From the IMG/VR virus record IMGVR_UViG_3300031992_000005, positions 96,001-160,000 of that record: a stretch of 64,000 nt of DNA, one strand, 5' to 3'. A model generated the notes under the pieces. That model was not told the DNA's origin. It did no database searches and worked only from the letters and a program-made list of their open reading frames with translations. Of the stretch, positions 1 through 42,074 are shown in pieces (position 1 is the first letter of the stretch; each line of letters starts with the position of its first letter). Source of the DNA: a virus. The position numbers and the translations under genes were made by a program.

Positions 1-693
1 TTTTTTCAGATATTACAAAAACTCTTTCAGACAGAAAAACTATTGAAAAGTTTATAGATAAATATGGATTTGATTTTATAAATCGAATAAATCACGATAG
101 AAACGGAGGATGCTATGAAGATGGCTGCCCTAAAAGATTACACTTTGAAATGGGCATTAGTCATGGCGAAGCTGCACAATCTCCAGAAAAAGTTTTAAAA
201 ATAATATCCTATAATAATGATATTATTGGATTATTTTACAATCACCCTAACTATTGCAAAGGATTTTCTGATTACCCAGGTGGATATCCAGTAACATGTT
301 CCTGTTGGAAAGGAAAAATGTATATTCAATGCCTAGATAAGGTTTTTGATGATTTATATGGATGGGGAACTAGGGAAATTATTGCGAAGATTTTAGGTTG
401 TAACGATAATAGCAGTTTTAGAAGCATATATCGTGCTGAAGAAGAAGAACGATATAATTCAAAATATTAATAATTATATACAAAAAATAAATATAAATTA
501 ACAAAAACTAATCTTTATAACTTCAACGACTATCCCCAAAAGGGAGTAGGGTAGCAAGTCTATAACGGCTACTCGAAAGATACGACATCTGACCAGGTTA
601 AGCTGAAGATGAAAATATAGTCTGATCTGTATGGAGACATACAGGAGTTCATAAGAGAACCGGGAATTAGTGACGCAATTCTTGAACAACATG
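1..693 (+). mobile_element. Group I intron, td-like (IA2-type), 3' portion; the 5' end lies upstream of the window
   Basis: Positions 520-693 read AACGACTATCCCC..GGGAGTAGGGT..CTCGAAAGATA..GAAAATATAGTCTGATCTGTATGGAGACATACAG..CCGGGAATTAG..GAACAACATG. This is colinear with the phage T4 td intron 3' core as I recall it (AACGACTATCCC..GGGAGTAGGGT..CTCGAAACGATAG..GATATAGTCTGCTCTGCATGGTGACATGCAG..CCGGGGTAAG..GAACATAATG). The terminal G693 is followed in frame by Toprim codons. Confidence 0.75.
3..470 (+). CDS. Intron-encoded ORF, 5'-partial; possible homing endonuclease C-terminal DNA-binding part
   Basis: The reading frame is open from nt 3, so the ORF track's 150 is only the first internal ATG. 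It sits just upstream of the intron catalytic core, as I-TevI does in td. The C-terminal GTREIIAKILGCNDNSSFRSIYR resembles the NUMOD1/IENR1-type HTH seen in ORF 1071-2258. No catalytic motif is visible in the part present. Confidence 0.45.
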   Translation, partial: FSDITKTLSDRKTIEKFIDKYGFDFINRINHDRNGGCYEDGCPKRLHFEMGISHGEAAQSPEKVLKIISYNNDIIGLFYNHPNYCKGFSDYPGGYPVTCSCWKGKMYIQCLDKVFDDLYGWGTREIIAKILGCNDNSSFRSIYRAEEEERYNSKY

Positions 694-916
694 GCAGATG
701 GAGATGCAATCTTTAATGAAATAATATACTTATTCAGTAAATTCGCACGTTTCTTATTAGACCATCATATGGTATATCGTGCTATGTCTCCTCTTTTCAG
801 AGGAATCAGTAAGACAACAGGACAAGTAACTTATTATTATCCAGATGATAAGTTCGACAATAAGGGTATTCCAGTAGATCTTGATATAAAGAAACCATAT
901 GATCGCTGGAAAGGAT
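694..916 (+). CDS. DNA topoisomerase II, GyrB/T4 gp39-gp60-like subunit, internal exon (Toprim DxDxD to KGL)
   Basis: ADGDAIFNEIIYLFSKF..MSPLFRG..YDRWKG matches the GyrB pattern D-A-D-x-D-G-x-H-I...PPLxGK...RYKGLG. The upstream exon must supply the first D. The exon ends at U916, which forms a U-G wobble in a P1 helix (913-918 with 924-929). Confidence 0.75.
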
Positions 917-2455
917 TAGGAAATAGTCCTAGTATGTAGAAATACATACCGTATAATTCTATTAAAAGCGGGGAACTCCTGTTAGGCTAATAGTACTAGA
1001 GATAGTAACAATCTATTAGATAGGGACAATCCGCAGTTGATGAGATTAGTTAAAAAATTAAAATAAAAACATGTTAAGACAAGACCTGAAGAAACAATTA
1101 GAGAACAAAGACTTAGACAAAATTTTCTTACAACATCGAGATAACATAGATCCAGGAAATTATAGAGTCGGGGAAATAGGCGAAGAAGTAGTTGTCTGGA
1201 ACCCTGACACTAATGAAATAATGGACTATTTCTTTGATGATAGTAAGGAAGAATGGTTTTGTTTAAGTATGATAAATAAAAATTTAGGTAATTATTCTAT
1301 AAATAAAAAAGGGGAAGTTAAAAGCCCAAAAAAACTACTAAAAAAAGTAGAACATGAAAGTTATTTATGCTATTTTCCATCTTATATTATAAATAAGAAA
1401 AGAAAATCTGTTAATCTCTATATTCATAGAGTATTAGCGATGATATTTATTCCAAACATAGATCCAAAAAATAAGGTAGATGTAGATCATATTGATAGGA
1501 ATAGGCATAATTTTTCACTAACTAACTTAAGATGGGTAACTAAAAAAGAAAGTGCTGAAAATAAAGAACAACCGCGTTGGCACGGGGAATATTCATACAT
1601 AGCCTACAAAGATAAAGAAAAGACACAAATCGCTTTCAAGCTAAATGAAGAGGATTTCCTTAAGAAAGGCTTTAAAAAGAAGCCATTATATGGTGCTATC
1701 AAGAACAATCATAGGTCACAAGGATATTATTGGACTAGAGTAAATCTACAGTTAGCAGAGTATCTAAAAAAGTTTAATATGCAAGAACAAGATATTGATG
1801 ATACAGAATGGAAATTACATTATTCTGGAACATTCTGGGTACATCCGCTAGGTTTAGTAAAAAAAACAAAACATAGTCCAATTATTTCTCCTGGTTGTCT
1901 TGACAGGAAGCGGAAAGAACGTCATTCAGTTAAAAGATATAATGGTAAACTAGTTCATATTTTGGTGGCAGAGGTGTTTTTAAACGACAATAAACCAATA
2001 CCTAAGAAATATGAGGTGGACCATACATCTGGAGATTCTCTGGATAATAGAGCCTCGAATTTAAATATTTGCACACACATCAAGAATATGAATAACCCAA
2101 ATACTTTAAAAAAAAAATATAAAAAAATAATCAATCTTGATACTGGTGAAATCTATAATTCGATAGCAGAATGTGCAAATGTATCTAAAATACATCGTGC
2201 CACGGTGTATAGAAATATAAAAAAAGGAATAAGATTTAAATATTACAAAGAAAATTAACAAAAAACTAATCTCATCAACTTCAACGACTATCCCTTTATG
2301 GGAGTAGAATAGCAAGTCTACAATGGCTATTCGAAAGATAGAACATCTGACCAGGTTAAGCTGAAGATGAAAATATAGTCTAAGCACCGTAGAGATGCGG
2401 TGGAGAGTTTACTACTCTCGCGTTTAAAGTAGGCGATTAAACGTAAATATAACTG
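917..2455 (+). mobile_element. Group I intron, td-like, complete, carrying an HNH endonuclease ORF
   Basis: P1 is GGAU|UA..UAGUCC with a U916-G926 wobble. A P2 hairpin GTATGT/ACATAC lies at 932-949. AAAGCGGGGAAC and GGGACAATCC boxes resemble td AAACGGGGAAC and AGACAATCC. The 3' core at 2257-2380 is about 88 percent identical to 500-622. The terminal G is 2455. TAGGAA occurs at both 917-922 and 2456-2461, so splicing restores ..KGLGSLSPE.. in frame. Confidence 0.8.
1071..2258 (+). CDS. Intron-encoded HNH homing endonuclease, tandem NUMOD4-HNH modules plus C-terminal HTH
   Basis: Two HNH_3-like motifs are present: VDVDHIDRNRHNFSLTNLRWVTKKES and YEVDHTSGDSLDNRASNLNICTHIKN. Each is preceded by a NUMOD4-like W..G.Y.I...G.V segment. 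The C-terminal LDTGEIYNSIAECANVSKIHRATVYRNIKKG looks like a NUMOD1/IENR1 HTH. Confidence 0.85.
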   Translation: MLRQDLKKQLENKDLDKIFLQHRDNIDPGNYRVGEIGEEVVVWNPDTNEIMDYFFDDSKEEWFCLSMINKNLGNYSINKKGEVKSPKKLLKKVEHESYLCYFPSYIINKKRKSVNLYIHRVLAMIFIPNIDPKNKVDVDHIDRNRHNFSLTNLRWVTKKESAENKEQPRWHGEYSYIAYKDKEKTQIAFKLNEEDFLKKGFKKKPLYGAIKNNHRSQGYYWTRVNLQLAEYLKKFNMQEQDIDDTEWKLHYSGTFWVHPLGLVKKTKHSPIISPGCLDRKRKERHSVKRYNGKLVHILVAEVFLNDNKPIPKKYEVDHTSGDSLDNRASNLNICTHIKNMNNPNTLKKKYKKIINLDTGEIYNSIAECANVSKIHRATVYRNIKKGIRFKYYKEN

Positions 2456-2643
2456 TAGGAAGTCTTTCGCCTGAAACAGGTGAAGTATATGATTCCTTCT
2501 ATAACCCTTATACAAGAAGACTTGTCTTAGTAACTCCTGAGGACATTGATTATTCGATGAAACTCAACGAGGACATTGATAGTAGGAAAAAGCTATTATA
2601 TGATAAAAATATTATTAGTAATCCTTATAATTTTACAGATTAA
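2456..2643 (+). CDS. DNA topoisomerase II GyrB-like subunit, last exon
   Basis: After splicing the protein reads (KG)LGSLSPETGEVYDSFYNPYTRRLVLVTPEDI. This parallels the GyrB C-terminus GLGEMNPEQLWETTMDPE.R.L..V...DA. The stop TAA 2641-2643 overlaps the ATG of the next gene (TAATG). Confidence 0.75.
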
Positions 2644-3980
2644 TGCCTAGAAAGAAAAAAGAAATAGAAGAACCAGTATTAAGGCCAATAGAGGTACTGC
2701 CTATTGGAGAAGCTACTGAACAAGCTATTCTAAATGCAGCCTCATATATAGATAATCAAAGAGCCTTAGCCAATGTAAAGGATGGATGTAAGGTTAGCTA
2801 TAGGCGACTCATTTGGTCTGCATTGCAATTCCCTAGAGGAGTAATGCAGCCAAGTGTAGAAGTTATTAACAAAATGGCTTCTTATCATCCACATAGCCTT
2901 GACTCAATGAAACTATTATCTGCATCTTTTGTTAGGACTGGTATATTTTCAGGAACAGGTTCTTTTGGAACAACTTCTATCTTAGGAGATGTTAAGGAAC
3001 CAGCTGCTCCTAGATACACGCACATGAGGTTAAGCGATCTATATTATGACCAGATCGCACCACTCCTATCGTGCGTAGATATGGTAGAGTCTCCTGTGGG
3101 AGCTCTTGAAATAGACTACTGTCCACTGGCATTGCCACTATGTTTATCTTTAAAAGGATTAGTTAGTGGTATTGGTGTAGGTATTAGTACTGTATATCCT
3201 AACTTTTCACCAAAATCATTATACCTGGCTTATAAGAATAATAATCCACAACTACTAGAACCGAATGTAGATCTAATTATGGATAAAAATAATTCAGAAT
3301 TAGAATCCCTTTGGACAACTGGAAAAGGTAGAATAATATATTCTTATAAACTCAGTCCATATACAAATGAAGACGGAAAGCCAGGATTCTTATTTGAGGG
3401 CGATACCTGTATCTTCACGCCAAACTTGAGAAAGATAAATAAATATGTTGATCAAGGACAGGTATTTATTGAAGATATGACAGACATGAATGGCCCTAAA
3501 ATGTTCGTTGGTCTGATAAGCAATAGAGGTAATCTTAGAATAGAAGACCTAGAGAAGCTTTGTAGACAATGCTGCTTTGATGCCACTGTTTATCAATTAA
3601 ATGTAACAGATGGAACCACCTGTTATAGAATTCCTCTCTATGATTGGATAAACTATACTTATAGAAGATATATCAAACTTCTTGAGCGAGTTAATTTAGA
3701 GAAGATAGAGAAGGTTAAGTTCGAAATAAAAGTACAAGAATCTTTGCCTGAAATTGCGAATTACATTATAAACGTAAATCCAGGTGCAACAGATAAAGAA
3801 ATTTGTACAAACCTAGGAATTGAACCTGAAGTAGTATCAACAGTAATGTCTAAGCCAATAGGACAACTTAGAAAAAATAAAGATAATACTGGGAAAATAA
3901 AAGCATTAAAACAAAGACTAAAGGATCTCCTAGTATTTGATCCAGAACTTTATGTTAAAAATTTAATAGAAAAATTATGA
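2643..3980 (+). CDS. DNA topoisomerase II subunit A (GyrA/ParC/T4 gp52-like)
   Basis: RALANVKDGCKVSYRRLIWSAL matches RALPDVRDGLKPVHRR. ASYHPHSLDSM matches YHPHGD. AAPRYTHMRLS holds the catalytic Tyr in the AxRYTExRL context. The length of 445 aa is similar to T4 gp52. Confidence 0.85.
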   Translation: MPRKKKEIEEPVLRPIEVLPIGEATEQAILNAASYIDNQRALANVKDGCKVSYRRLIWSALQFPRGVMQPSVEVINKMASYHPHSLDSMKLLSASFVRTGIFSGTGSFGTTSILGDVKEPAAPRYTHMRLSDLYYDQIAPLLSCVDMVESPVGALEIDYCPLALPLCLSLKGLVSGIGVGISTVYPNFSPKSLYLAYKNNNPQLLEPNVDLIMDKNNSELESLWTTGKGRIIYSYKLSPYTNEDGKPGFLFEGDTCIFTPNLRKINKYVDQGQVFIEDMTDMNGPKMFVGLISNRGNLRIEDLEKLCRQCCFDATVYQLNVTDGTTCYRIPLYDWINYTYRRYIKLLERVNLEKIEKVKFEIKVQESLPEIANYIINVNPGATDKEICTNLGIEPEVVSTVMSKPIGQLRKNKDNTGKIKALKQRLKDLLVFDPELYVKNLIEKL

Positions 3981-6686: not shown

Positions 6687-6722
6687 AATGGCTTGCTCGT
6701 GATGAGTAGGCCATTTTTTTTT
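6687..6722 (+). terminator. Intrinsic terminator, same family
   Basis: AATGGC-ttg-CTC-GTGAT-GAG-tag-GCCATT followed by T9. Confidence 0.7.
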
Positions 6723-6745
6723 ATCCCCTTAAACCCTTATTAATG
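6723..6745 (+). promoter_or_regulatory. Promoter-like motif, class A (unit 3)
   Basis: ATCCCCTTAAACCCTTATTAATG. Confidence 0.45.
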
Positions 6746-6757
6746 AATATGTCTTTA

Positions 6758-6828
6758 GGGAGCCTCGGCAATAGTAACCCCGGTCTTAGGTTATCACTAG
6801 CCACGTGGTAACGGGTTACTGGGCTCCC
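6758..6828 (+). ncRNA. Candidate structured small RNA (Y-shaped, ~71 nt), paralog of 7060-7125
   Basis: A 7-bp closing stem GGGAGCC/GGCTCCC is followed by T7. An internal long hairpin reads GGC-aa-TAG-TAACC[9-nt loop]GGTTA-tca-CTA-GCC. A short hairpin GTAA-CGGG-TTAC follows it. The unit lies between a promoter-like motif and a T-run and has no meaningful ORF. Confidence 0.5.
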
Positions 6829-6835
6829 TTTTTTT

Positions 6836-6858
6836 ATCCCTTAAATTCCTTATAATTG
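6836..6858 (+). promoter_or_regulatory. Promoter-like motif, class A (unit 4)
   Basis: ATCCCTTAAATTCCTTATAATTG. Confidence 0.45.
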
Positions 6859-6896
6859 GATTAATACTCATATTTTGTTTTTTATTTAATACTAAA

Positions 6897-6929
6897 GGCC
6901 CACGTCTGTGAAGATATGGGTCTTTTTTT
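6897..6929 (+). terminator. Intrinsic terminator, same family
   Basis: GGCCCA-cg-TCT-GTGA-AGA-ta-TGGGTC followed by T7. Confidence 0.65.
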
Positions 6930-6952
6930 ATCCCTTTAGTTCCTTATATATG
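6930..6952 (+). promoter_or_regulatory. Promoter-like motif, class A (unit 5)
   Basis: ATCCCTTTAGTTCCTTATATATG. Confidence 0.45.
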
Positions 6953-6986
6953 AACATTTGTTAATAATATTTTAATTGTTAATGTG

Positions 6987-7017
6987 AATGGTTTGCCTGG
7001 GAAGGTAGACCATTTTT
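6987..7017 (+). terminator. Intrinsic terminator, same family
   Basis: AATGGT-ttg-CCT-GGGA-AGG-tag-ACCATT followed by T6. Confidence 0.65.
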
Positions 7018-7021
7018 TCAA

Positions 7022-7044
7022 ATCCCTTTAAACCCTTATATATG
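7022..7044 (+). promoter_or_regulatory. Promoter-like motif, class A (unit 6)
   Basis: ATCCCTTTAAACCCTTATATATG. Confidence 0.45.
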
Positions 7045-7059
7045 AGTTAGTCGTGAGAA

Positions 7060-7125
7060 GGGAGCCATTCGAGTAGTCCGGACCTTGAGACCGTCTACGG
7101 ACGGTAATGGGATTACAGGCTCCCC
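7060..7125 (+). ncRNA. Candidate structured small RNA (~66 nt), paralog of 6758-6828
   Basis: It has the same closing stem GGGAGCC/GGCTCCC followed by T10. The internal hairpin reads GTCCG-GAC[9-nt loop]GTC-ta-CGGAC. The short hairpin is GTAAT-GGG-ATTAC. It shares GGTAAyGGGwTTAC..GGCTCCC with the first copy. Confidence 0.5.
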
Positions 7126-7139
7126 ATTTTTTTTTTCAA

Positions 7140-7162
7140 ATCCCGTTAAATTCTTATATATG
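7140..7162 (+). promoter_or_regulatory. Promoter-like motif, class A (unit 7)
   Basis: ATCCCGTTAAATTCTTATATATG. Confidence 0.45.
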
Positions 7163-7195
7163 TTAAGAACATGGCATAGATTTTTTTAGCATTTA

Positions 7196-7240
7196 AAGGA
7201 AATTCGCTCGTGATGAGTAGATTTCCTTGCTTTTTTTTCT
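7196..7240 (+). terminator. Intrinsic terminator, same family
   Basis: AAGGAAAT-tcg-CTC-GTGAT-GAG-tag-ATTTCCTT, then GC and T8. Confidence 0.7.
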
Positions 7241-7241
7241 G

Positions 7242-7271
7242 TTCCCAGAGAAGGATTTCCTTATAAGTATG
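7242..7271 (+). promoter_or_regulatory. Promoter-like motif, long-spacer variant
   Basis: TTCCCAGAGAAGGATTTCCTTATAAGTATG, 23 nt upstream of ATG 7294. Confidence 0.4.
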
Positions 7272-7293
7272 AATAGTATAAATTTTAGGTTAT

Positions 7294-8343
7294 ATGTTAA
7301 CAATTGTACCAGATGTTGAACAGGTTGTGGAAGATATTTATATAGAACATATTCAAAAAGGTAAAGGAGTTGGATTGAATTATAGAATTTATCCACTTAC
7401 CCCTGATGGCGGCGATATTTATACAGATACGGGATATATACCAACTATATGTTTTAATAATAATCCATCCACAGCAAAAACATTACCGATCATAAACCTA
7501 GTTTCTTCGAGAATAGATAAATTTAAATCTGGGAATACGGGTAATGCTATGAACGTATTTAACTATTTGAAAAATGACTACAGTCCTAGTATAGGGGTTC
7601 CCGATCTAATATTGATTAGAGAATACCCAATTCCTATAGATAATCCCAACGTATGGAAGAAATATGTAATTAAAGAATTTAAAAATGATCTGAATAATCT
7701 AGATTTTAAATTCCTAAATAGAAGTTTTATTAGTTTAGACGTTTATTCACCACAGCAAAAATTAGCAATAGAAGCAGATTCTAGTAAATATCACTCTGGA
7801 ATTAATGAAAGAAAAGATTGGGTAAGGGACAGATATTTAGAAGACGTTGTTGGAATAGATACAATTCGAATTATGGACTTTATTCCTTCTTCTGAATATA
7901 ATATAAACGAATTTAAAAAGAAACTGGATAATTATAAGATCAATAAAACTAAAGACGCTTATTACCCAGAACCTAAAAAACTTGCTTCTACAGTTTTTAA
8001 TTATAATAATACCCCACTAGTAAAAGAAACTGTTAATTATATAAGAAATTTCGTATACAGGGAAAATCACTTAGAAGATAAGCCCTCTAATAACCTAGCT
8101 TATAGAATTTTATCCTATTTTATGAGTCTTGAACTTAAAATTAAATTTGTGGGAGAAAGTTTATTTACAATGGGAGATTATAAGAATAGAGCAAGAAACT
8201 TTCTAATGACAGTAAAAACTATCATAAATAAAACAATCAAAGATCCAACACTGGAATTTTTAATTTCCGATGAAGATGTCCAATATTATATTGACTGTAA
8301 TTATAAAAAAGGAATTCTGAAGCACTTAATTCCTTACAAATGA
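7294..8343 (+). CDS. Vsr/DUF559-like (restriction-endonuclease-fold) domain protein; possible free-standing homing endonuclease
   Basis: The central LDVYSPQQKLAIEADSSKYHSGINERKDWVRDRYLEDVVGIDTIRI fits the DUF559/Vsr pattern (D...l.iE.DG..H......D..R...L...G..v.R). It is paralogous to 46331-46903. Confidence 0.6.
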   Translation: MLTIVPDVEQVVEDIYIEHIQKGKGVGLNYRIYPLTPDGGDIYTDTGYIPTICFNNNPSTAKTLPIINLVSSRIDKFKSGNTGNAMNVFNYLKNDYSPSIGVPDLILIREYPIPIDNPNVWKKYVIKEFKNDLNNLDFKFLNRSFISLDVYSPQQKLAIEADSSKYHSGINERKDWVRDRYLEDVVGIDTIRIMDFIPSSEYNINEFKKKLDNYKINKTKDAYYPEPKKLASTVFNYNNTPLVKETVNYIRNFVYRENHLEDKPSNNLAYRILSYFMSLELKIKFVGESLFTMGDYKNRARNFLMTVKTIINKTIKDPTLEFLISDEDVQYYIDCNYKKGILKHLIPYK

Positions 8344-15905: not shown

Positions 15906-16497
15906 CTGTTTGTAATTTTTGTTGTGCTAAATTTAAAGCCGAATTATAGTAGCAATTATTGCCCAGAGGATTATAACTCATATAATCAAGATTTCTGTTC
16001 AACGTTACTTTAGACACGATATTTCTTACCTCCAGTAGAATATCTTCAGGGTCTCCTAGAAAATTATACCAACCAGGGTCAGCAAATATCATTAGTTCCT
16101 TTGAAGTCAATTTCACAAACAAGTTAATCTCTGATACCCAAGCCTCAGGTAATGCTGTTAACCCAAATTCAATGTCTTTATTAAGAGAGCTTTGATCAAA
16201 ATTTCTCTGTACATCAACTAGAGTAAAATCCTTTATTTTATCAAATACTAGGTCATTCAATACAAAAAGCTTACTCTCTTCAATGATATCCTTGTAGTCC
16301 TTCACAACAAAGTCTCTATAATAAGACGGATAAAATGAGTCATAATAATAGTTTTTACTTAAAGTATCAATGCAAGAACTCAAGCTACTTGATAAATCAG
16401 TAGTAACACCAGTTATTTTAGAGAATGCATCATTAAGAACTATCTTTGATAAGCTACTTACTACTCCATTTTCATCTTTCATTTTTTCTTCCATCAT
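15892..16497 (-). CDS. Hypothetical protein
   Basis: ORF with a 4-nt overlap with the upstream nuclease gene. No motif recognised. Confidence 0.7.
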   Translation of the reverse strand: MMEEKMKDENGVVSSLSKIVLNDAFSKITGVTTDLSSSLSSCIDTLSKNYYYDSFYPSYYRDFVVKDYKDIIEESKLFVLNDLVFDKIKDFTLVDVQRNFDQSSLNKDIEFGLTALPEAWVSEINLFVKLTSKELMIFADPGWYNFLGDPEDILLEVRNIVSKVTLNRNLDYMSYNPLGNNCYYNSALNLAQQKLQTDVKA

Positions 16498-19214
16498 TTT
16501 ACTAAAACATTAGTTATTGCTGAATCATTTAATGTTAATTGAATGGACTTATTATTAAAGCTTGGAACAGAATCCATATGACTACATAATATTACGCAAT
16601 CAACCTTCATCTCTTTAATCAAGTCTAATACAATATCATGATTTTCTGAATCGAGGTGCTTTAAGAATTCATCCATAATTAAGAATCCCATTCCAGTTAC
16701 GATTTTCTGAAGAAAATCCACGTCAAGAATAGTTCTCTGACCATCACTACAGTTGATATAAGGCACTTCATTTCCCCTAAGATTATAAAAACTATCCAAG
16801 CTAAGATGTTCTTTTCCCCTAAAGGTAAAGTGATTTGTCTTATAAGTTACTCTATTGTCACTAAATTCTCCTGCAAGACGTTTCATAATCTCTTCATATA
16901 TATCACCGGTCGGACCAGTTAGTTTTATATACCTCTGGAAATCTTCCATGAGAGAAGAGGTTTTTTCAATCTCACTTTCGTAGGCTTTTATTTTTTCTTC
17001 TTCCTTAGATTTATCTAGAACTAGAGTATTGTACTGATTCCATGTACCAATCTCTGCCTCTATAAAACCGAGTTGTTCAATGAAACCCTCTGGAAGTTCA
17101 GGCTTCTCCGGGATATTACCAAGATTGGATAGATCTTCCTCTACCTTTTTCAGATCTTGCCTTACTTTATCATACTCAATACTAGTGAGAGTATTATTTT
17201 GTTTCTCTGTATAAAGTCTAGCAATACTGTTATTTAATTCAGCTTTTGCCTTATCATCCCAACCCAAGAGAACTTGATTTTGTTCCTGAATAGCCCTATC
17301 TACAGAGAAAATGCGCTGTTCAAATTCCTGAATATGACTTCCCGGATTTTTCTTAATAGGTTGGCCACATGTAGGACATATCGCACCGGCCATTAATTGA
17401 TCCTTTTCCCTAATTAACTTATCTTTTTCTACATTGAGTGAATAAAATTTCATATATTCAGCCTCAACCCAAGATTGTTGTTTCTTAAGTCGTTCTATTT
17501 CAGAATCAATAGTAGGAAAATCCCTAAAGGAGTCTAACTTTTGCTTCAATTCAGCTAATCTGAAAGTATCATTTTCCTTCCTGGCCATTAAGGAAGCACT
17601 TCTTTCTATAAAATCGTTATAAGCGATCAGTTTCTTTTGTAAAGATCTTCCATAATCTCTTTTAACAATCAAAGAATCTAGTGATTCTTGTGGAAGAACA
17701 ATACCTTGTAGTTTGGTTTCAATAAACCTAAGAACTTCTTTAGATTTATCGATACCCTCCAGCCACTTACTACTACCTCTCACCAACTGCTCGAGGAGTA
17801 CCTTAGCATGATCATTGTAGGTATCGATCCTATCCATCTTGAAAAACCTACTAATGATCTCAGATTTTCTCTCTGGAGTAATATCCCCAATGAATCTAGG
17901 GTGATCTGAGTCAAAGAAACATACATCCATGAAGTCTATGAAAGGAAATCTAATATGCATATCCTTTTCAAACTCTGCCTTCTTATTATATTTCTGTGGC
18001 TCACCTTCAATCCAAAAACCATACTTCTTACTACCTCTCTGAATTCTATAATTCACACCTTGATATATAAAATCTACTTCGGTTATACATTCTTTTGCTC
18101 CAAATTGAACAAAATCCTTGTAATGTGGATTTTCTACAAAGGCATACTTAATAGCAGATAAGAGACTAGATTTACCAGAACCATTATGTCCCGTCAAGAG
18201 GATTCTATCTCCTGCACCGAGATAAAGTTCTGCTTCTTCTATACTTCTCCAATTCTTACAATAGAATCTGGTGATAGTAAAGTTAAAATCTACCTCATTG
18301 GCATCTAAGTTTGGAATAGTTTTTATTACTTCAGAATGAATGTTCTCTAATTTTTCTCGAACTAATACATTTTCTATTAAGTGACCTATTTCTTCCCAAG
18401 CTGGGATATTGATATTTCTTACGCCACTATTTACTACGTGATTACTCGGCTTATATACATACCAAGTCTTATCTAATTCATTCCAACCCTCAAGATCCCT
18501 TTGTTCCGTATATTGAAACTTGATAAGATTATCATGAGGATTAAGATTTACCCAATAGCACTTACTTTCTACACAATCCACTATTACACCAGTACAGTAC
18601 TCTGAATCAGACATCCTACAACGTTGTGGAATACCTATACTCATATACTTACCACTGTTGGCTGGCTTATGTATATCTCCGCAAATAGCGAGTTTAAACT
18701 TGCTTTCATCTAGAACTTGGCTATGGAAATTATCTTCCCTCGAATAAGATATAGTAGCATGCGTAAATAAGATATCAAGCTGCCCATTTACCCAAGATAG
18801 GTCAAACTCAGGTCTCCAATTATAAAACCCTATTCTCTTGCCATCTACATTAATCTCCTTCATATCTGCATAATAAAGGTTCTTTGGTAGCATGACAGAT
18901 AATGCACAGTCAGTAAATTCAGAATTAACTCCCTTGTTATCCTGATCGTGATTTCCCCAGATTATAAAACCCATCTTAAAATGAGCCATTACAGTATCTA
19001 AGAAATTCTTTACTTCTGCCTGAACATAGGGTCTATTTAAAAAATTATCTACAGTATCTCCAGCGATAACTAAGATATCAGCCCCTTCAGACTCAGCAAC
19101 CTCTATTATATTAGAGGCTACTGTTCTAGTCTGATAGAGTCTATATTTATTTGTTGGATTTCTTTGTGGATAATCGTGTATATGAAGATCCGAAATTGCA
19201 AGAATTTTACTCAT
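16494..19214 (-). CDS. Fused Mre11/SbcD-like nuclease and Rad50/SbcC-like ATPase (T4 gp47+gp46 equivalents in one polypeptide)
   Basis: The N-terminus has phosphoesterase motifs ISDLHIHD, VIAGDTVDN, WGNHD and CGDIHKP. These are followed by Walker A LTGHNGSGKSSLLSAIKYAF, a long coiled-coil with a CPTCGQ zinc hook, the signature-like CSDGQRT, Walker B FLIMDEF and the H-loop LCSHM. Confidence 0.85.
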   Translation of the reverse strand: MSKILAISDLHIHDYPQRNPTNKYRLYQTRTVASNIIEVAESEGADILVIAGDTVDNFLNRPYVQAEVKNFLDTVMAHFKMGFIIWGNHDQDNKGVNSEFTDCALSVMLPKNLYYADMKEINVDGKRIGFYNWRPEFDLSWVNGQLDILFTHATISYSREDNFHSQVLDESKFKLAICGDIHKPANSGKYMSIGIPQRCRMSDSEYCTGVIVDCVESKCYWVNLNPHDNLIKFQYTEQRDLEGWNELDKTWYVYKPSNHVVNSGVRNINIPAWEEIGHLIENVLVREKLENIHSEVIKTIPNLDANEVDFNFTITRFYCKNWRSIEEAELYLGAGDRILLTGHNGSGKSSLLSAIKYAFVENPHYKDFVQFGAKECITEVDFIYQGVNYRIQRGSKKYGFWIEGEPQKYNKKAEFEKDMHIRFPFIDFMDVCFFDSDHPRFIGDITPERKSEIISRFFKMDRIDTYNDHAKVLLEQLVRGSSKWLEGIDKSKEVLRFIETKLQGIVLPQESLDSLIVKRDYGRSLQKKLIAYNDFIERSASLMARKENDTFRLAELKQKLDSFRDFPTIDSEIERLKKQQSWVEAEYMKFYSLNVEKDKLIREKDQLMAGAICPTCGQPIKKNPGSHIQEFEQRIFSVDRAIQEQNQVLLGWDDKAKAELNNSIARLYTEKQNNTLTSIEYDKVRQDLKKVEEDLSNLGNIPEKPELPEGFIEQLGFIEAEIGTWNQYNTLVLDKSKEEEKIKAYESEIEKTSSLMEDFQRYIKLTGPTGDIYEEIMKRLAGEFSDNRVTYKTNHFTFRGKEHLSLDSFYNLRGNEVPYINCSDGQRTILDVDFLQKIVTGMGFLIMDEFLKHLDSENHDIVLDLIKEMKVDCVILCSHMDSVPSFNNKSIQLTLNDSAITNVLVK

Positions 19215-23444: not shown

Positions 23445-23750
23445 TTACTTTTTCTCTTCTTCCTTGTTGTTCTTTTCCTGCTGACCTTGACCTGGTTCTG
23501 GTTTTTGTTCAGGTTGTTCAGTCGTTGGAAACCTCTTATCGAGGCCCCTTTTTGCAGATTTCATTGTGTCACCAATAGCATCGGTAACTTTGTCCATCGC
23601 TGCGTTAGCTACAATCGCTACTAAGATAGCGGCTCCGACCAATGTACCTGCGGCAATAATGCCGAGGATGATCATAATGATCGACTTCACCACTTTGTTA
23701 ATGCTACGTTTCTGAGCAGTCTTGATCTGTTTTTTGTTAATCTTTTCCAT
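23445..23750 (-). CDS. Small membrane protein (one TM helix, charged C-terminal tail)
   Basis: The TM segment is IIMIILGIIAAGTLVGAAILVAIVANAA. The tail is rich in K, E, Q and P. It forms a monocistronic unit with a class B motif and a terminator. Confidence 0.65.
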   Translation of the reverse strand: MEKINKKQIKTAQKRSINKVVKSIIMIILGIIAAGTLVGAAILVAIVANAAMDKVTDAIGDTMKSAKRGLDKRFPTTEQPEQKPEPGQGQQEKNNKEEEKK

Positions 23751-23792
23751 GATTTCTTAAGTTTTAAAGTTGAACATAAAATTTAACTGTTT

Positions 23793-23828
23793 CTATATAT
23801 AAGGCATTTTTCCTCTTTTAGGAAGGAA
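23793..23828 (-). promoter_or_regulatory. Promoter-like motif, class B (minus strand)
   Basis: The reverse complement reads TTCCTTCCTAAAAGAGGAAAAATGCCTTATATATAG. It is preceded by terminator GGGCGGAATTTCCGCCC plus a T-run. Confidence 0.4.
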
Positions 23829-23858
23829 AAAATAAAGGGCGGAAATTCCGCCCACCTT

Positions 23859-23930
23859 TTAAAAATAGAAGATTTTCTGGAGAAAACCTGATATGATTGG
23901 CCAGATTACTTCGTCAAATACTCTAAACAT
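23859..23930 (-). CDS. Micro-ORF (23 aa, hydrophobic)
   Basis: MFRVFDEVIWPIISGFLQKIFYF. Its ATG lies 1 nt after the stop of the preceding micro-ORF. Confidence 0.25.
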   Translation of the reverse strand: MFRVFDEVIWPIISGFLQKIFYF

Positions 23931-23931
23931 A

Positions 23932-24081
23932 TTAATACAACGTTTTTTTTAAGTTAGACATAAATCTTTTAAAACCATAATCTTGTATAGCTCTCATCAA
24001 GTCATACGTCTGATCACCTATTGCTGTGCCATGATGTCCACATATATATGCAGATAATCCAGTTAAAATCTTCATAATCAT
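23932..24081 (-). CDS. Micro-ORF (49 aa)
   Basis: MIMKILTGLSAYICGHHGTAIGDQTYDLMRAIQDYGFKRFMSNLKKTLY. It has an ATGA-type overlap with the preceding micro-ORF. Confidence 0.3.
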   Translation of the reverse strand: MIMKILTGLSAYICGHHGTAIGDQTYDLMRAIQDYGFKRFMSNLKKTLY

Positions 24082-24221
24082 AATCCTCTGCTGTTTCTAA
24101 TTTTTTCATCAGCCTTTCTTCCAAAAGCTGAATCTAAATAATATCGATATAAAATTTCGGTACCAATCGCCGCTACTGCAGCTTCCATACCTACTACAAT
24201 AATTGTTGCTAAATAATACAT
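24078..24221 (-). CDS. Micro-ORF (47 aa, N-terminal TM helix)
   Basis: MYYLATIIVVGMEAAVAAIGTEILYRYYLDSAFGRKADEKIRNSRGL. It is the first cistron behind class B motif 24264-24293. Confidence 0.3.
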   Translation of the reverse strand: MYYLATIIVVGMEAAVAAIGTEILYRYYLDSAFGRKADEKIRNSRGL

Positions 24222-24263
24222 AATGTTGTTTATTTTTAAAATTGTTAGAAATTATTAATATTT

Positions 24264-24293
24264 ATATATATAAGGCATTAAAAGGACGAGCAA
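24264..24293 (-). promoter_or_regulatory. Promoter-like motif, class B (minus strand)
   Basis: The reverse complement reads TTGCTCGTCCTTTTAATGCCTTATATATAT, downstream of a hairpin plus T-run. Confidence 0.4.
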
Positions 24294-24346
24294 AAAAGAA
24301 AGGGAGGCAATCCCTGCTTCCTTTCTTTTGATGTGTTCAGATGAAC

Positions 24347-24733
24347 TTAACCCCTTTTCTTTCCGTGGGGTTGCTTACGATGATTCTTCCTATACTTAAG
24401 ACTTAATCCCAATCGGGTCTTGCGACCGAAGGTTTTGATCTCTTCCTCTGTCAAATCTTCATCCATGTGCTTTATCGTTGACATAAGACGCTTTCCCAGC
24501 ACTTCGACTGGGGTCTTGATGTCTACAAAGAATCTTGCGGTTGCCCTAATTGCACGGACAACTGCAAAGAATTTCTGTAAAAATGGGATTTTTGAATCCC
24601 TATCCCTTCTTTTCCAGACGAACTTCCACATCTGGATTAGTAAATTGACCCTTTCGATCAGGCCAACCAAAAAGTTACTCACTACGTATATGATCATAAT
24701 GACCGAATACACGAAGTTAAATTTCTTTTTCAT
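24347..24733 (-). CDS. Membrane protein (N-terminal TM helix, basic C-terminus)
   Basis: The TM segment is FVYSVIMIIYVVSNFLVGLI. It forms a monocistronic unit with class B motif 24774-24809. Confidence 0.65.
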   Translation of the reverse strand: MKKKFNFVYSVIMIIYVVSNFLVGLIERVNLLIQMWKFVWKRRDRDSKIPFLQKFFAVVRAIRATARFFVDIKTPVEVLGKRLMSTIKHMDEDLTEEEIKTFGRKTRLGLSLKYRKNHRKQPHGKKRG

Positions 24734-24839: not shown

Positions 24840-25376
24840 TTAGAAGAAATCCACTATTATATAAGAAACAGAATTATATACAGGCCTTCTATACAACAAT
24901 TTATTCCAGATCCAAGGAATAGGTAATAAACAATACCAGAAGTGCTTTTTATCTATTTCTGGAAAATAGTTATGTGATGTAATATCAGACGTTGTAATAA
25001 AATTCCACTTAGGCTTTTTTATTGCAATAAAACCTACCTTACAACCTTCTGGTATCCAACCTGCAACTAGGTTAATAAAATCCTCAGGATAAGAATGCCA
25101 ATCTCCCTCATAAGTAAAGTTAAGAATACACTCATGACCCTTAAAGAGATTCATTGCTTCTTTAACTGTCATCTTACTTCTCCAAAGACCATGAGCAAAT
25201 ACCCACGTATCTCCCTTTTCTTTTACTCTAAGATCAAACCAGGTAATACCACTATTAAGCTGTTCTGACAAAGTTTTTCTTTGACACTTAGCAAAGATCT
25301 TACCTAGTCGACTTAAAAACCCAGAACTTTTCTCACCTGTCGCACTATTATGCGTTCCGATTTTCAATGAATTCAT
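24840..25376 (-). CDS. PI-PLC X-domain-like phosphodiesterase
   Basis: IGTHNSATG...QRKTLSEQLNSGITWFDLRV...FAHGLW fits the PLC-X pattern (GTHdS ... Q..i..QL..G.R.fDlRv ... HG). Confidence 0.5.
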   Translation of the reverse strand: MNSLKIGTHNSATGEKSSGFLSRLGKIFAKCQRKTLSEQLNSGITWFDLRVKEKGDTWVFAHGLWRSKMTVKEAMNLFKGHECILNFTYEGDWHSYPEDFINLVAGWIPEGCKVGFIAIKKPKWNFITTSDITSHNYFPEIDKKHFWYCLLPIPWIWNKLLYRRPVYNSVSYIIVDFF

Positions 25377-26727
25377 TATATTTAATTTTAATAAAATTTT
25401 CCAAAGCCTCAGGAGTATTTTCTAACACTCCATCTAAAACTGCCTCTTTCATAGCATTTTTTATTAGACCGACCATTCTTCCTTTTCCAATACCTAGGAT
25501 TTCCATTATCTCATTTCCTCCAAGGCATGGTTGAAAAAGCCGAACGAGATCTTTTTCTTGCAGGTCACTAATCATCTTTCTTAACTTATCATAGTGATCC
25601 TGTAACCTCATTCTTTTCGAGGGTCTTCTCGAAGTTACGTCAGATTCACAAAGGAGTAGTAGGTCTTCTAAATCTTCTCCAGCATCATAAATAAGCCTTC
25701 TAACAGCACTATCAGTAATAACTGAAGTACTAATCATAGCTGGCCTCATGTGCATATCAACCAGCTTTTGAACATAGTCTTTCTTACCTATCCTAAGCCT
25801 ATCAAGAACTCCTGGTATTAAGTTAGCCCCAATATGTTCATGATTATAGAAGGTCCACTCTCCTGTAGTAGGATCAAATCTCTGAGTAGAAGCTTTTCCA
25901 ATATCATGAAGAAGAGCCGCTATTCTAAGGTAAGGATTAGTTGTTTTCCCCACAATATTTCTCAAAACCTGTAAAGAATGCTTATAATTATCCTTATGTC
26001 CTTCAAGATCATTTCCTGCTTTAAGGGCAGTTAACTCAGGGAGAATCATTTCAAGGAGTTCAGCTGCATCTAGGAGTTCAATTCCTGCAACTGGATCGGG
26101 AGAAGCCATGATTTTTAGAAATTCCGTGCCAATCCTATCAGGGGTTAGAATTTTTATTCTATCCTTCAAAACCTTCATTGCATCAATTAGTCTCGAATCT
26201 ATGAGAAAACCCAATTTACACGTGAATCTAATAGCTCTGAACATGCGCAATGGATCATCCTTGAAAGTAATCATGGGATCCGTTGGTGTCATTATAATCT
26301 TACTTTTTAAATACTTTCGTCCATCAAACGGATCAACATACTCCCCAAAATGCTTCTCATTAAGACACATGGCAATAGTATTTATAGTAAAATCCCTTCT
26401 CATCTGATCATCATATAATGTACCTGGTACTACAGAAGGTTTTCTACTATCTGGGCTATAGGATTCTTTCCTAGCCCCAACAAATTCTACTTCTAGGTTA
26501 TTATACTTTACTGCGGCAGTTCCATAACGTTCATATCTGAGAACCTTACTCTGATGAATCTCCTTGGCAAATTCATCCGCCATCTTTACACCATCACCGA
26601 CGACAACAATATCAATGTCGTCATTTTCTATACCTAGAAGCTTATCTCTTACGTATCCACCTATAACATAACATGGTAGATTAATTTTGTCTGCTACTTT
26701 TCCAATTAATTTTAATAAGTCTTCCAT
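25348..26727 (-). CDS. cca: tRNA nucleotidyltransferase (CCA-adding enzyme) with HD domain
   Basis: YVIGGYVRDKLLG..DDIDIVVVGDG holds the Pol-beta nucleotidyltransferase GG/DxD. RRDFTINTIAM and DPLRMFRAIRF are head/neck motifs. LLHDIGK is the HD domain. Confidence 0.85.
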   Translation of the reverse strand: MEDLLKLIGKVADKINLPCYVIGGYVRDKLLGIENDDIDIVVVGDGVKMADEFAKEIHQSKVLRYERYGTAAVKYNNLEVEFVGARKESYSPDSRKPSVVPGTLYDDQMRRDFTINTIAMCLNEKHFGEYVDPFDGRKYLKSKIIMTPTDPMITFKDDPLRMFRAIRFTCKLGFLIDSRLIDAMKVLKDRIKILTPDRIGTEFLKIMASPDPVAGIELLDAAELLEMILPELTALKAGNDLEGHKDNYKHSLQVLRNIVGKTTNPYLRIAALLHDIGKASTQRFDPTTGEWTFYNHEHIGANLIPGVLDRLRIGKKDYVQKLVDMHMRPAMISTSVITDSAVRRLIYDAGEDLEDLLLLCESDVTSRRPSKRMRLQDHYDKLRKMISDLQEKDLVRLFQPCLGGNEIMEILGIGKGRMVGLIKNAMKEAVLDGVLENTPEALENFIKIKYNEFIENRNA

Positions 26728-28803: not shown

Positions 28804-30438
28804 ATGGATAGTAAAATTATTAGAAAAGGCGATGGTGTTCAAGAGAAGATCATCGCTGGTGTATCAGAATCAGTTAAAGCAATTAAAACAACTCTTGGTC
28901 CAAGTGGAAAAGGAGTAGCACTAGATGAAGGTGATATGTTAGGAATAACTATCACACGAGATGGGGCTACTGTTGCTAAAGCTATTCACCTAAAAGATAG
29001 AGAGGAAAATATTGGCGCAGAACTCGTTAAGAAAGCTGCCACTATGACTGAAGATCTGGCGGGTGATGGAACATCCACGACATCAATTCTCATAGAAGAA
29101 TTTTGTAAGAAAGGTCAGAAAGCAGTAAATGCCGGAGCTAATGTAAATGAGCTCAAAAGTGGTATGCTGAAAGCCGGTAAGTGGATGGAGAACTTTATCA
29201 AGGATAACGCCATTGAAATTGATGGTGACTTAACTAAGATTGAAAAAGTTGCTACATTATCAGCAAACAATGATCCTGAAATAGGTAGATTAGTAGTGAA
29301 AGGTCTTAGCGAAGTTGGTCTTAATGGTCTTATTACGGCTGACTTAGCATCCGGACTTGACACTATTATTGATATTACTACTGGTATGAAATTAGATAAA
29401 GGTTGGGCAAGTCCACAATATGTGACCGAACCTGAAACAGGAAAATGTATCCTAGAGGATCCTTATGTCTATGTGGTAGGTGAAAAGATTAGTTCAGTAT
29501 CTCAGATAATGAACTTCTTAGAGTCTTATCAAAATTCCGGTGGTGGTCGTCCATTACTCATTGTATGTGATGATATGGATGATAATGTTAATAGTATGCT
29601 GGTAATCAATACTTTACGTGGAGCTCTCAGATGCTGTGTAGTAAAAGGAATTGATTTTGGTGATGGTAGAAAGAATGCTATGGCTGACTTAGCAGTAGCA
29701 GTTAATGCTAATTATATCTGCCCTGATAATAACTCTGACCTAAGTAAGAGTACTATTGGAGATGCAGGTTTTGCTAAGAAGGTAGTTGTTAGTAGAGACT
29801 CTTGTATTATCTTTGAAGGCTATGGTGATCCACAGGCTATTAAAGATAGAGCTAATATCATTAAGGCTAGACTAGAAAGCAATGAAATTAGTGACTATGA
29901 CAAGAAGAAGTTCGAAAAACGCTTAGCCAACTTAACGGGCGGTATTGCAGTCATTCGAGCTGGTGGAGCTGTTGAATCTGAAAAGAGAAACAGAAAAGCA
30001 ACTATTGAAGATGCTGTCCTAGCTGCTAAGAGTGCTATTGAAGAAGGATGTTGTCCTGGTGGTGGATATGTTTTCTGGAAAGGAAGTATTGAAGCTAAGG
30101 AAGACAGGGAGTTTTGGAAAAAACTCACAGAAGATGAAGCACAAGGAGCTAAGATTGTATTCGATTCACTACCAATTATCCTAAAGACCGTGGCAGAAAA
30201 TGCCGGTGTCTCTGGAGATGTAGTTCTGAATGAGATGGTTAAGTCTAAGAAGAAAGAAAACTATGGCTTTAATGCTAAAACTAAGAACTTCGGTAACTTA
30301 GTAGATACTGGAATTCTTGATAGTGCTAAAGTTCTTAGAGTTAGCCTAGAAAATAGTATCAGTACAGCATCAATGATTCTCTTGATTGACTGTACTATTA
30401 TACAGGAAGAAGAAAATAAGGAAAACAGTGGACAATAA
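28804..30438 (+). CDS. groEL: Chaperonin GroEL (Cpn60)
   Basis: TLGPSGKGVALD, ITRDGATVAKAI, EENIGAELVKKAA, DLAGDGTSTTSILI, AVIRAGGAVESE and GCCPGGG are present. It is 544 aa long. Confidence 0.9.
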   Translation: MDSKIIRKGDGVQEKIIAGVSESVKAIKTTLGPSGKGVALDEGDMLGITITRDGATVAKAIHLKDREENIGAELVKKAATMTEDLAGDGTSTTSILIEEFCKKGQKAVNAGANVNELKSGMLKAGKWMENFIKDNAIEIDGDLTKIEKVATLSANNDPEIGRLVVKGLSEVGLNGLITADLASGLDTIIDITTGMKLDKGWASPQYVTEPETGKCILEDPYVYVVGEKISSVSQIMNFLESYQNSGGGRPLLIVCDDMDDNVNSMLVINTLRGALRCCVVKGIDFGDGRKNAMADLAVAVNANYICPDNNSDLSKSTIGDAGFAKKVVVSRDSCIIFEGYGDPQAIKDRANIIKARLESNEISDYDKKKFEKRLANLTGGIAVIRAGGAVESEKRNRKATIEDAVLAAKSAIEEGCCPGGGYVFWKGSIEAKEDREFWKKLTEDEAQGAKIVFDSLPIILKTVAENAGVSGDVVLNEMVKSKKKENYGFNAKTKNFGNLVDTGILDSAKVLRVSLENSISTASMILLIDCTIIQEEENKENSGQ

Positions 30439-38106: not shown

Positions 38107-38110
38107 TACA

Positions 38111-38213
38111 ATGCAACAAATGTTACATTGGAATGCAACAAATGTTACATCAGAGTTTAATTAAAAAAGAACTATGCAACAAATGTTACATTAGGATGCA
38201 ACAAATGTTACAT
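38111..38213 (+). repeat. Four direct copies of the 18-mer ATGCAACAAATGTTACAT, arranged as two pairs
   Basis: Copies lie at 38111-38128, 38133-38150, 38174-38191 and 38196-38213. Spacing within pairs is 22 nt and between pairs 63 nt. Confidence 0.95.
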
Positions 38214-38223
38214 TAATGGTTTA

Positions 38224-38356
38224 ATGTTACAAATTCAAAAATATGTTACAAATTCAAAAATATGTTACAAATTCAAAAATATGTTACAAATTCAAAAATA
38301 TGTTACAAATTCAAAAATATGTTACAAATTCAAAAATATGAAATTTTGTAACAAAT
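38224..38356 (+). repeat. Six perfect tandem copies of the 19-mer ATGTTACAAATTCAAAAAT plus an inverted core copy
   Basis: Copies start at 38224, 38243, 38262, 38281, 38300 and 38319. The core TGTTACA is shared with the 18-mer repeats. TTGTAACAAAT at 38346-38356 carries the inverted core. Confidence 0.95.
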
Positions 38357-38381
38357 AAAAAAATCGCTAAATAAAAGATAG

Positions 38382-38527
38382 TATAATATATATTATTAAA
38401 TATAAATATAATAAATAATATAATATATATAATTATTATTAAATATAAATATAATAATTAATATAATATAAATAATATAAATATAATAAATATAAATATA
38501 TATAATATAATATAATATATATATATA
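38382..38527. other. 146-nt tract of pure A/T; candidate DNA-unwinding element
   Basis: There is no G or C between 38382 and 38527. The tract is built from ATAATA/TATAAA-type short repeats and lies directly after the iteron-like arrays. Confidence 0.6.
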
Positions 38528-38638
38528 CAACACCAACCAACCTTTAATCTTAAATTGCAAAAACGCATCACCTTTATAAAACACTGAAATAGAAGGACTT
38601 AAAGCCTTACTTATGTTTATAAATTTAAAATAAGGGTT

Positions 38639-40221: not shown

Positions 40222-40309
40222 AAGTTAATAGTTTTTGGAACAATACATTTGTAAGGATTTGAAGCGTAGTTTTTGCTGATCTCTGCCCATAGAAACCTTA
40301 TCTTTGATT

Positions 40310-42044: not shown

Positions 42045-42074
42045 TTTATTTATTTTTAAAACCCTTAAGTTATT

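Follow-up and report, generated by a model that had tools for sequence, protein, structure and literature searches.

A large-phage topoisomerase II large-subunit gene interrupted by two related group I introns of the T4 td type

The window considered here is a stretch of 64,000 nucleotides (nt) of viral DNA, positions 96,001 to 160,000 of IMG/VR record IMGVR_UViG_3300031992_000005, and its first 2643 nt carry the 3′ part of a gene for a topoisomerase II large subunit that is broken up by two group I introns. All features of this locus lie on the plus strand. The open frames in 1-2643 give a fragmentary picture: an open reading frame (ORF) ends at 470, 82 codons run from 694 to a stop at 939, and an ORF of 395 amino acids occupies 1071-2258. 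An AT-rich structured stretch fills 471-693, a second structured stretch is found at 2259-2455, and a short frame then runs to the TAA at 2641-2643. The upstream part of the gene comes from a 107.7-kb parent contig (L001), which was found through the identical 395-residue ORF, shares 12,258 nt with the window without a mismatch and adds 8.9 kb upstream; position 1 of the window is position 8931 of L001 (offset +8930). Exon 1 is a 535-codon ORF upstream of the window (L001 7151-8755), which ends in GAT at 8755 and is followed by TAG. Exon 2 (694-916) consists of 74 codons plus one nucleotide (ADGDAIFNEI...DRWKG) and encodes the C-terminal half of the Toprim domain. Exon 3 (2456-2640, with the stop TAA at 2641-2643) completes a leucine codon (T916 plus TA), continues as GSLSPETGEVYD...NFTD and covers the GyrB C-terminal motif region. 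Next to it lies a gene for a GyrA/T4 gp52-like topoisomerase II subunit of 445 residues (2643-3980; PF00521, E=7e-13). Its ATG shares one base with the TAA of exon 3 (TAATG, the stop being 2641-2643), and the start of this second subunit abuts the exon-3 stop, which translation of the large subunit would reach only after splicing.

Joining L001 7151-8755 to window positions 694-916 and 2456-2643 gives 2016 nt in frame and a protein of 671 residues. Its domain signals come in the expected order, with Toprim at E=1.8e-9 and HATPase_c, DNA_gyraseB and DNA_gyraseB_C below their curated cut-offs. A search of 5.8 billion proteins returned uninterrupted homologues of 667-682 residues at 55-76% identity and 100% coverage, and the alignment to them is gap-free across both junctions: at junction 1 the spliced protein reads ...IIASDAD|ADGDAIFNEIIYLFSKFARFL... 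and the homologue P0003 ...IIATDSDPDGDSIFNEIIYLFSKFARFL..., and at junction 2 they read ...RWKG(L)GSLSPETGEVYDSFYNP... and ...RWKGLGSLSPKTGEVYDSFFNP..., respectively. In a tblastn search, exons 2 and 3 match annotated phage GyrB/topoisomerase genes as a single piece. Truncated gene calls recovered by protein search stop exactly at these exon ends (...IIASDAD in P0010, ...RFKGL in P0039), and a 97% identical protein, P0001, is continuous through site 1 and ends just inside intron 2. The exons contain neither stops nor frameshifts and are 97% identical to one relative. The spliced protein also aligns to T4 gp39 plus gp60 (genes 39 and 60 translated from NC_000866). Because the Toprim, ATPase, transducer and C-terminal signals are ordered, an A-type gene is adjacent and T4 gp39+gp60 aligns, the host gene is a GyrB-like, T4-type topoisomerase II large subunit, the B-type subunit of a type IIA topoisomerase. 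The first-pass annotation, made from the letters of the window, had placed exons at 694-916 and 2456-2643 around a 1539-nt element (917-2455) and taken them for the Toprim and C-terminal part of a T4-type large subunit. These coordinates are exact, the Toprim and GyrB signals and the GyrA-like gene downstream agree with the identification, and the alignment to GyrB and gp39/gp60 that it had suggested proves colinear and gap-free at the junctions. Its in-frame KG-LG junction holds too, the product ...RWKG-L-GSLSPETGEVYD... being colinear with the uninterrupted homologues, and a junction after G693 does yield ADGDAI and a DxDxD motif (...IIASDAD|ADGDAIF...), qualified by an ambiguity of ±1 nt at junction 1.

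Intron 2 (917-2455, 1539 nt) lies inside the conserved KG|LG motif and is an IA2-type group I intron with a terminal G2455. Its P1 helix (912-930) pairs exon AGGAU (912-916) with the guide GUCCU (926-930) and puts U916·G926 at the splice site. The 5′ half of the core (932-1034), which a 5′-core profile finds at E=8e-19 (nhmmer), contains P2 (932-938/943-949, GAAA loop), the 5′ strand of P3 (957-962, partner 2338-2343), P4 (968-972/1030-1034) and P5 (977-980/1023-1026), the last extended by P5a (987-993/1013-1019) and P5b (994-998/1003-1007, GAGA loop). The strands of P6 (1035-1051 and 2264-2280) form a perfect helix of 17 base pairs (bp) with the ORF in its loop. The 3′ catalytic core (2281-2402) follows with P7 (2286-2291/2375-2380), P7.1, P7.2 (2307-2313/2326-2332), P3′ (2338-2343), P8 (2344-2348/2365-2369) and P9 (2385-2391/2396-2402, GAGA loop), and the 3′ end (2403-2455) adds P9.1 (2403-2407/2415-2419), P9.2 (2421-2427/2437-2443) and the splice site ...AUAACUG|. 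The minimum-free-energy fold of the ORF-trimmed intron contains P2, P3, P4, P5, P5a/b, P6, P7.1, P7.2, P8, P9, P9.1 and P9.2, and P7 (GACUAU/AUAGUC) crosses P3, which is the expected pseudoknot. The start of intron 2 (917-922, TAGGAA) is identical to the start of exon 3 (2456-2461), and unspliced read-through still gives ...KGLG, with a stop at 937-939. This repeat is shorter in one relative (L005) and absent in the human-gut clade.

Intron 1 is 868 nt long (L001 8756-9623, or window -174 to 693) and lies inside the Toprim DxDxD metal-binding motif (SDAD|ADG). It begins 174 nt before the window, in which positions 1-693 are its 3′ 693 nt with a terminal G693; an upstream element running off the window had been proposed, and the parent contig shows it to be this intron, preceded by the 535-codon exon 1. 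P1 is formed by the exon-1 end GCGGAU and the guide GUCCGU, with the U·G pair at L001 U8755. P4-P5 (L001 8809-8880) also lies upstream of the window, and the 3′ strand of P6 (506-521) makes a perfect 16-bp helix with L001 8882-8897, an inverted match. The 3′ catalytic core (523-644) comprises J6/7, P7 (528-533/617-622), P7.1, P7.2 (549-555/568-574), P3′ (580-585), P8 (586-590/607-611) and P9 (627-633/638-644, GAGA loop). The P9.1/P9.2 region and 3′ splice site (645-693) end in ...GAACAACAUG|, colinear with ...GAACAUAAUG| of T4 td. The U916-G926 wobble, G2455 and G693 of the original reading are all as described.

The kinship of the two elements with each other and with the T4 td intron is visible in the sequence itself. 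Positions 476-623 and 2234-2381 form an 82% direct repeat. The blocks AACGACTATCC, GGGAGTAG, CTCGAAAGATA and ATATAGTCT occur in the same order in both elements and are present in T4 td (NC_000866), as the first-pass annotation had proposed, although the third of them reads CTCGAAACGATA there; AACGACTATCC is found exactly twice in the 64 kb, at 525 and 2283. In the 3′ core, intron 1 is 69% identical to T4 td through P7-P9.2, including the ...GAACAxxAUG 3′ end, and intron 2 is 60% identical. A profile built from the topoisomerase introns alone, with T4 excluded, retrieves the T4 td core at E=2.5e-8. A covariance model of the 3′ core from P7 to P9 (model R1), made from 13 introns of other contigs plus T4 td and none from this contig, finds 523-644 at 126.7 bits (E=1.5e-28) and 2281-2402 at 123.6 bits (E=8e-28), all pairs being standard, and also recognises the T4 nrdB intron, outside its training set, at E=2e-8. 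It gave nothing else credible within the window, and neither blastn, a motif search, nhmmer nor model R1 located further copies of the intron family there. Among phage genomes, blastn with the ORF-trimmed intron 2 returned four weak partial matches only, and with a 4-kb query the P8-P9.1 segment of intron 1 was 74-92% identical in 124 phage records, many of them in unannotated gaps or ribonucleotide reductase genes. Since P7.1 and P7.2 are present and both td and nrdB are similar, the two introns belong to subgroup IA2 (td type).

Covariation among relatives gives a further line of evidence. Relatives of the gene were taken from viral contigs and assemblies and their interruptions mapped by tblastn. 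Altogether 28 introns were extracted, of which 18, T4 td included, were aligned with their ORF loops trimmed and scored against a hand-drawn structure (82 pairs, 1440 cells). In this alignment, 91.7% of the cells are paired, sliding the 3′ partners by 1-3 columns lowers this to 37-44%, and 48 of the 82 pairs show changes on both sides. On four of five measures none of 500 shuffles matched the observed value; on the fifth, further pair types, three did. Pairing reaches 99-100% in P1, P4, P5, P7, P7.1, P7.2 and P8. Five of six pairs covary in P3, three of three in P7.1 and five of seven in P7.2, with P7.1 and P7.2 being 100% paired and P7 invariant. The splice-site U·G is kept in all 18 introns, and changes in the exon strand of P1 are matched in the guide (CG 8, GC 5, AU 3). 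P3 was scored with a shift of one column in the MAFFT alignment; P6 is misaligned there and was excluded from the count, and is therefore shown per intron, as the perfect 16- and 17-bp helices given above. The structure was derived from one of the aligned sequences, and the sequences are related; despite these two caveats we argue that the signal is real, as pairing drops in the slid control and many independent types of pair occur. With a P3-P9 core including the P3/P7 pseudoknot, the U·G pair in P1, a terminal G and a restored reading frame, both interruptions are group I introns. The two td-like group I introns of the first-pass annotation thus stand, with structure, covariation, the custom model R1 and the direct resemblance to T4 td in agreement.

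Both introns carry an ORF in the P6 loop, and the two are of different kinds. The intron-2 ORF (1071-2258, 395 residues, between the P6 strands at 1035-1051 and 2264-2280) encodes a putative homing endonuclease with two HNH_3 domains (PF13392, E=2e-18, two stretches) and matches HNH endonuclease PHROGs. Homologues of 387-393 residues occur in the equivalent introns of five relatives (L005, L008, L012, L013 and L030) and in the site-1 introns of two (L018 and L024). Catalytic-looking DH...N...N motifs are present in both HNH_3 domains of the one chain, and from these motifs a single tandem-HNH protein could cut both DNA strands. The intron-1 ORF (161 residues, L001 8915-9400) starts 16 nt upstream of the window, of which positions 1-470 hold its last 155 codons and stop. 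Profile searches found no match for it in Pfam, PHROG, NCBIfam or PDB. Its family is tiny, with six clusters at 90% identity and two representatives among 1.84 billion proteins, none annotated, and is marked by invariant ISYNNDI, YPVT.SCWKG.MY and GTR.II motifs. The one other member whose context was checked (P0124 on L031) has the same position, in the P6 loop of an intron at site 1. An AlphaFold model has a mean predicted local distance difference test score of 58.5, falling below 50 in the conserved Cys-rich part. The product may represent a novel type of intron-encoded protein. In other site-1 introns the ORF is a different one, of 279-320 residues, and its PHROG matches are weak and endonuclease-like.

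Across 27 contigs the gene is found in every state: uninterrupted, with an intron at site 1 only, at site 2 only, or at both. The introns at these sites are either ORF-less (about 317-345 nt) or ORF-bearing. The 97% identical relative (P0001 on L005) is without intron 1 and keeps intron 2, and another (L010) is without both. In many relatives the same gene also holds an in-frame intein near residue 445, at the glutamate motif of exon 1, which is either a mini form of 417 nt or a full form of 1389 nt (PF14890); the carriers are L016-L023 and L027-L030, together with P0002 (98% identical), P0005-P0008 and others. Compared with the intron-1-less L005, exon nucleotide identity is 92-100% except in nt 1351-1710 of the spliced coding sequence (L001 8501-8755 plus window 694-798), around the intron site at nt 1605, where it is 76-88%. 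The 90 nt downstream of site 1 are 90% identical to L014, whose intron is the closest relative of intron 1, versus 51-77% elsewhere. By these comparisons, the divergent exon tract around intron 1 looks like the pattern expected of homing with co-conversion. The P4-P5 domain is 97% identical between introns 1 and 2 (L001 8809-8880 versus window 968-1034), and since the intron-1 orthologue in L014 reaches 85% there, this suggests that sequence has been exchanged between the two introns within one genome.

Taken together, we consider it likely, with a probability of roughly 0.9, that two paralogous self-splicing group I introns of the td type (IA2) interrupt this topoisomerase II large-subunit gene in a large phage. 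Directly observed are the colinear exons, the covarying RNA structure, the polymorphism in intron presence and the footprint that resembles co-conversion. Each intron would fold in the pre-mRNA into its P3-P9 core, a guanosine would attack after the U of the P1 U·G pair (L001 T8755; window T916), and the freed exon would then attack after the terminal G (G693; G2455), leaving a single ORF of 671 codons. The tandem-HNH endonuclease of intron 2, whose activity is predicted from its domains, would presumably cut intron-less alleles of co-infecting relatives, and repair would copy the intron plus flanking exon sequence into the cut allele.

Several points weigh against this reading. Splicing itself is predicted from the sequence, and no exact spliced or intron-less junction with these exon flanks was matched in metagenome and viral contig collections. 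No nuclease motif can be recognised in the intron-1 ORF. The divergent tract starts immediately 3′ of the intein site of the relatives, and part of it could reflect intein traffic. Junction 1 has two in-frame registers that obey the U...G rule, GAT|GCA (DADADG) and GATT|CA (DADSDG). Lastly, the covariance search to which the first-pass annotation had pointed came out in two parts: model R1 matches both cores, as described above, but the Rfam group I model RF00028 has no match in the whole window at its gathering threshold, nor in 1-3000 at E<=10. In a control on a 10-kb stretch of T4 at E<=10, RF00028 missed the td intron (L004 7553-8568) and gave the nrdB intron 35.7 bits against a gathering threshold of 50. 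The blank is not informative, because the same model misses the genuine T4 td intron. A homologous intron of L008 is given 29.4 bits (E=6e-5). In effect, a standard Rfam scan does not see IA2 introns that bear an ORF.

The alternative that survives best touches only junction 1. If the junction lay one nucleotide to the right, exon 1 would end at L001 T8756, the intron at G694, and the product would read DAD-S-DGD instead of DAD-A-DGD. This register is in frame with U before the intron and G at its end, it makes P1 and P10 contiguous on the guide (AUCUG|AGUCCGU), and it is the sole register that gives the introns of L018, L024 and L030 a terminal G; the uninterrupted homologues show S, P, A or E at this residue. 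The splice-site pair would become U-A, however, although it is U·G in 18 of 18 aligned introns including T4 td, and the same one-nucleotide P1/P10 offset is seen in L008-type relatives, in which the register leaves the product unchanged. The shift is thus unlikely, and the unshifted GAT|GCA is preferred because it keeps the U·G pair that is invariant in the alignment.

Much further down comes the idea that decay has left one intron, or both, unable to splice, so that this copy of the gene is a pseudogene or partly functional. It could draw on the site-1 introns of L018, L024 and L030, which are without a terminal G in the U·G register, on L011, whose product would be two residues short, and on the missing nuclease signature of the intron-1 ORF. 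We hold it to be very improbable, given that in both introns of the window the U·G and the terminal G are kept, P7 is invariant and the core helices are fully paired, that the exons are free of stops and frameshifts and 97% identical to a relative, and that the downstream subunit gene is intact with its start overlapping the exon-3 stop. It is likewise very improbable that the gene works in pieces without splicing, with endonuclease cassettes having split it, three fragments being translated apart and assembled, and the RNA folds being relics. T4 does so at the same domain, where mobA splits genes 39 and 60, and an in-frame ATG at 691-693 precedes exon 2. That ATG, however, is the conserved td-type 3′ end (T4 td ...AUAAUG), and exon 3, on this reading a fragment of 61 residues, lacks a start codon in frame. 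Moreover, ORF-less 317-nt versions exist at the same sites, the exons join exactly in frame at canonical motif lengths, and compensatory changes keep all core helices, which would have no reason to persist without ribozyme function. An intein reading of both interruptions was rejected, as stop codons stand directly after both 5′ junctions and RNA structure is present.

If the locus is read as a gene with two td-type introns, its closest counterparts are in T4. The T4 td intron (IA2, I-TevI) has the same set of helices including P7.1 and P7.2 between P7 and P3′, an ORF in the P6 loop, a U·G at the 5′ splice site and the 3′ end ...GAACAxxAUG|. It differs in its host gene, thymidylate synthase rather than topoisomerase II, in lacking the extended P5a/P5b arm with a GNRA loop, and in carrying the GIY-YIG enzyme I-TevI rather than a tandem HNH_3 protein or an orphan ORF. 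The T4 nrdB intron (I-TevIII) likewise combines an IA2-type core with an HNH-family intron endonuclease; it sits in another host gene, whereas here the HNH domain is duplicated within one 395-residue protein. SPO1 with I-HmuI is another phage group I intron that bears an HNH enzyme. The third counterpart is the 50-nt bypass gap of T4 gene 60 (L032 2803-2852), which follows ...TDADHDG46 in the same Toprim metal-binding motif. It lies three alignment columns downstream of the intron-1 site and one codon from the site of the intron in a relative (L015), and the IKGLGSL motif of gp60 aligns with site 2. The first-pass annotation had offered the interruption of the T4 topoisomerase as a parallel, and at three columns' distance it is closer than was stated. 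The bypass/MobA cassette resembles the present introns in being a mobile element with an HNH endonuclease. Unlike them, it is resolved by a ribosome hop and subunit assembly, with neither RNA splicing nor a ribozyme. The MobA/bypass element has been described as always inserting in the Toprim domain (10.1101/2022.08.31.505936).

What is called site 1 here is in fact three positions, 6 nt apart, within D-x-D-x-D-G. After the first Asp, the exon ends in ACGGAU in L014, L011, L018, L024 and L030 and in GUGGAU in L031; after the second, it ends in GCGGAU in this window and GCAGAU in the L008 group; after the third, in GAGGAU in L015. At every one of these positions the exon end complements that intron's own guide. 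The guide GUCCGU is common to intron 1 and the L014 intron, which are two codons apart, each placed exactly where its own exon reads CGGAU. The intron after the third Asp in L015 has a P1-P3 module 90% identical to that of intron 2 and the same guide GUCCU, and the two host sites share AGGAU only; its 3′ core is closer to the site-1 introns, which makes it a mosaic. Two irregular cases are seen among the relatives. In L018 (9552), L024 (9151) and L030 (8341) the site-1 introns end ...AAAAAAA|GCAGAT, without a terminal G in the U·G register, and a shift by one nucleotide restores the terminal G and gives D-S-D. In L011 (7602/9256) a 5′ junction after the first Asp is combined with a 3′ exon of the second-Asp type, and the spliced product would be two residues shorter (TD|ADGD).

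One tentative interpretation of these placements is that the repeat coding for DxDxD (GAT-GCN-GAT-GCN-GAT) may serve as a landing pad with several registers, on which introns settle wherever 5-6 nt match their guide. The L015 pattern fits guide-sequence-directed relocation of the kind proposed for introns in ribosomal DNA (rDNA), in which related introns at different nearby sites also share only 5-6 nt complementary to the guide; unlike in rDNA, the host here is a protein-coding gene of a phage and the ectopic intron is a mosaic. Alternatives to guide-directed relocation are homing accompanied by slippage in the GAT-GCN repeats, or an endonuclease of relaxed specificity. A true landing pad would point, if only circumstantially, to RNA-guided relocation of the reverse-splicing type within a phage gene that codes for protein, and would mean targeting convergent with that of the T4 gene-60 bypass element.

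On a wider scale, the 'Jug' gut jumbo phages, with AT-rich genomes of 360-402 kb, have been reported to hold inteins as well as group I introns, the latter numbering about 18 per genome and mostly bearing HNH endonucleases. Metatranscriptomes support the splicing of about half of these introns, and ruminant relatives are mentioned; the introns treated in the main text are those of terL, nrdD and DNA polymerase, and the topoisomerase large subunit is not among the hosts described there (PMC12880540). The present intron family is similar in that it occurs on contigs of up to 0.2-0.4 Mb and that an intein is found in the gene too. It differs in that the window has a G+C content of 33-36% versus 27-30% in Jug phages, and in that the 64 kb hold two introns of this family and no further copies.

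The remainder of the window has a varied content. Among the products encoded in 9013-32259 and 40304-58484 are a GroEL-type chaperonin (28804-30438), a CCA/poly(A) polymerase with an HD domain (25348-26727, minus strand) and an Mre11/Rad50-like fusion (16494-19214, minus strand), as well as an M42 peptidase, an IMPDH-like protein, a non-specific endonuclease and at least five BspA-type leucine-rich-repeat proteins. No tRNA or other Rfam family reaches its gathering score in the 64 kb. Non-coding gaps of 450-650 nt are present at 6709-7294, 23750-24347, 38106-38639, 41835-42294 and 42983-43631, and the intron models applied here find no match in any of the five.

It is classic for phage genes of DNA metabolism to hold group I introns that bear homing endonucleases. 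In the searchable literature no introns are described in a phage topoisomerase/GyrB gene; they may be in the supplementary tables of PMC12880540. The two introns of this large, gut-type phage are real selfish elements, of the kind expected for gut jumbo phages already reported to be rich in group I introns, and with them the topoisomerase II large subunit joins the DNA-metabolism genes that host td-type mobile introns. For annotation this has a practical side: gene callers report such genes as fragments of 535, 82 and 0 residues, and the introns go unflagged by Rfam. In different phage lineages the Toprim domain has been invaded by three classes of element, namely group I introns, an intein and the T4 MobA/bypass cassette. 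The relatives of this gene, with ORF-less and ORF-bearing forms, all states of occupancy, three registers, module swaps and a co-conversion tract, form a natural data set that can be used for testing how group I introns choose and change their sites.

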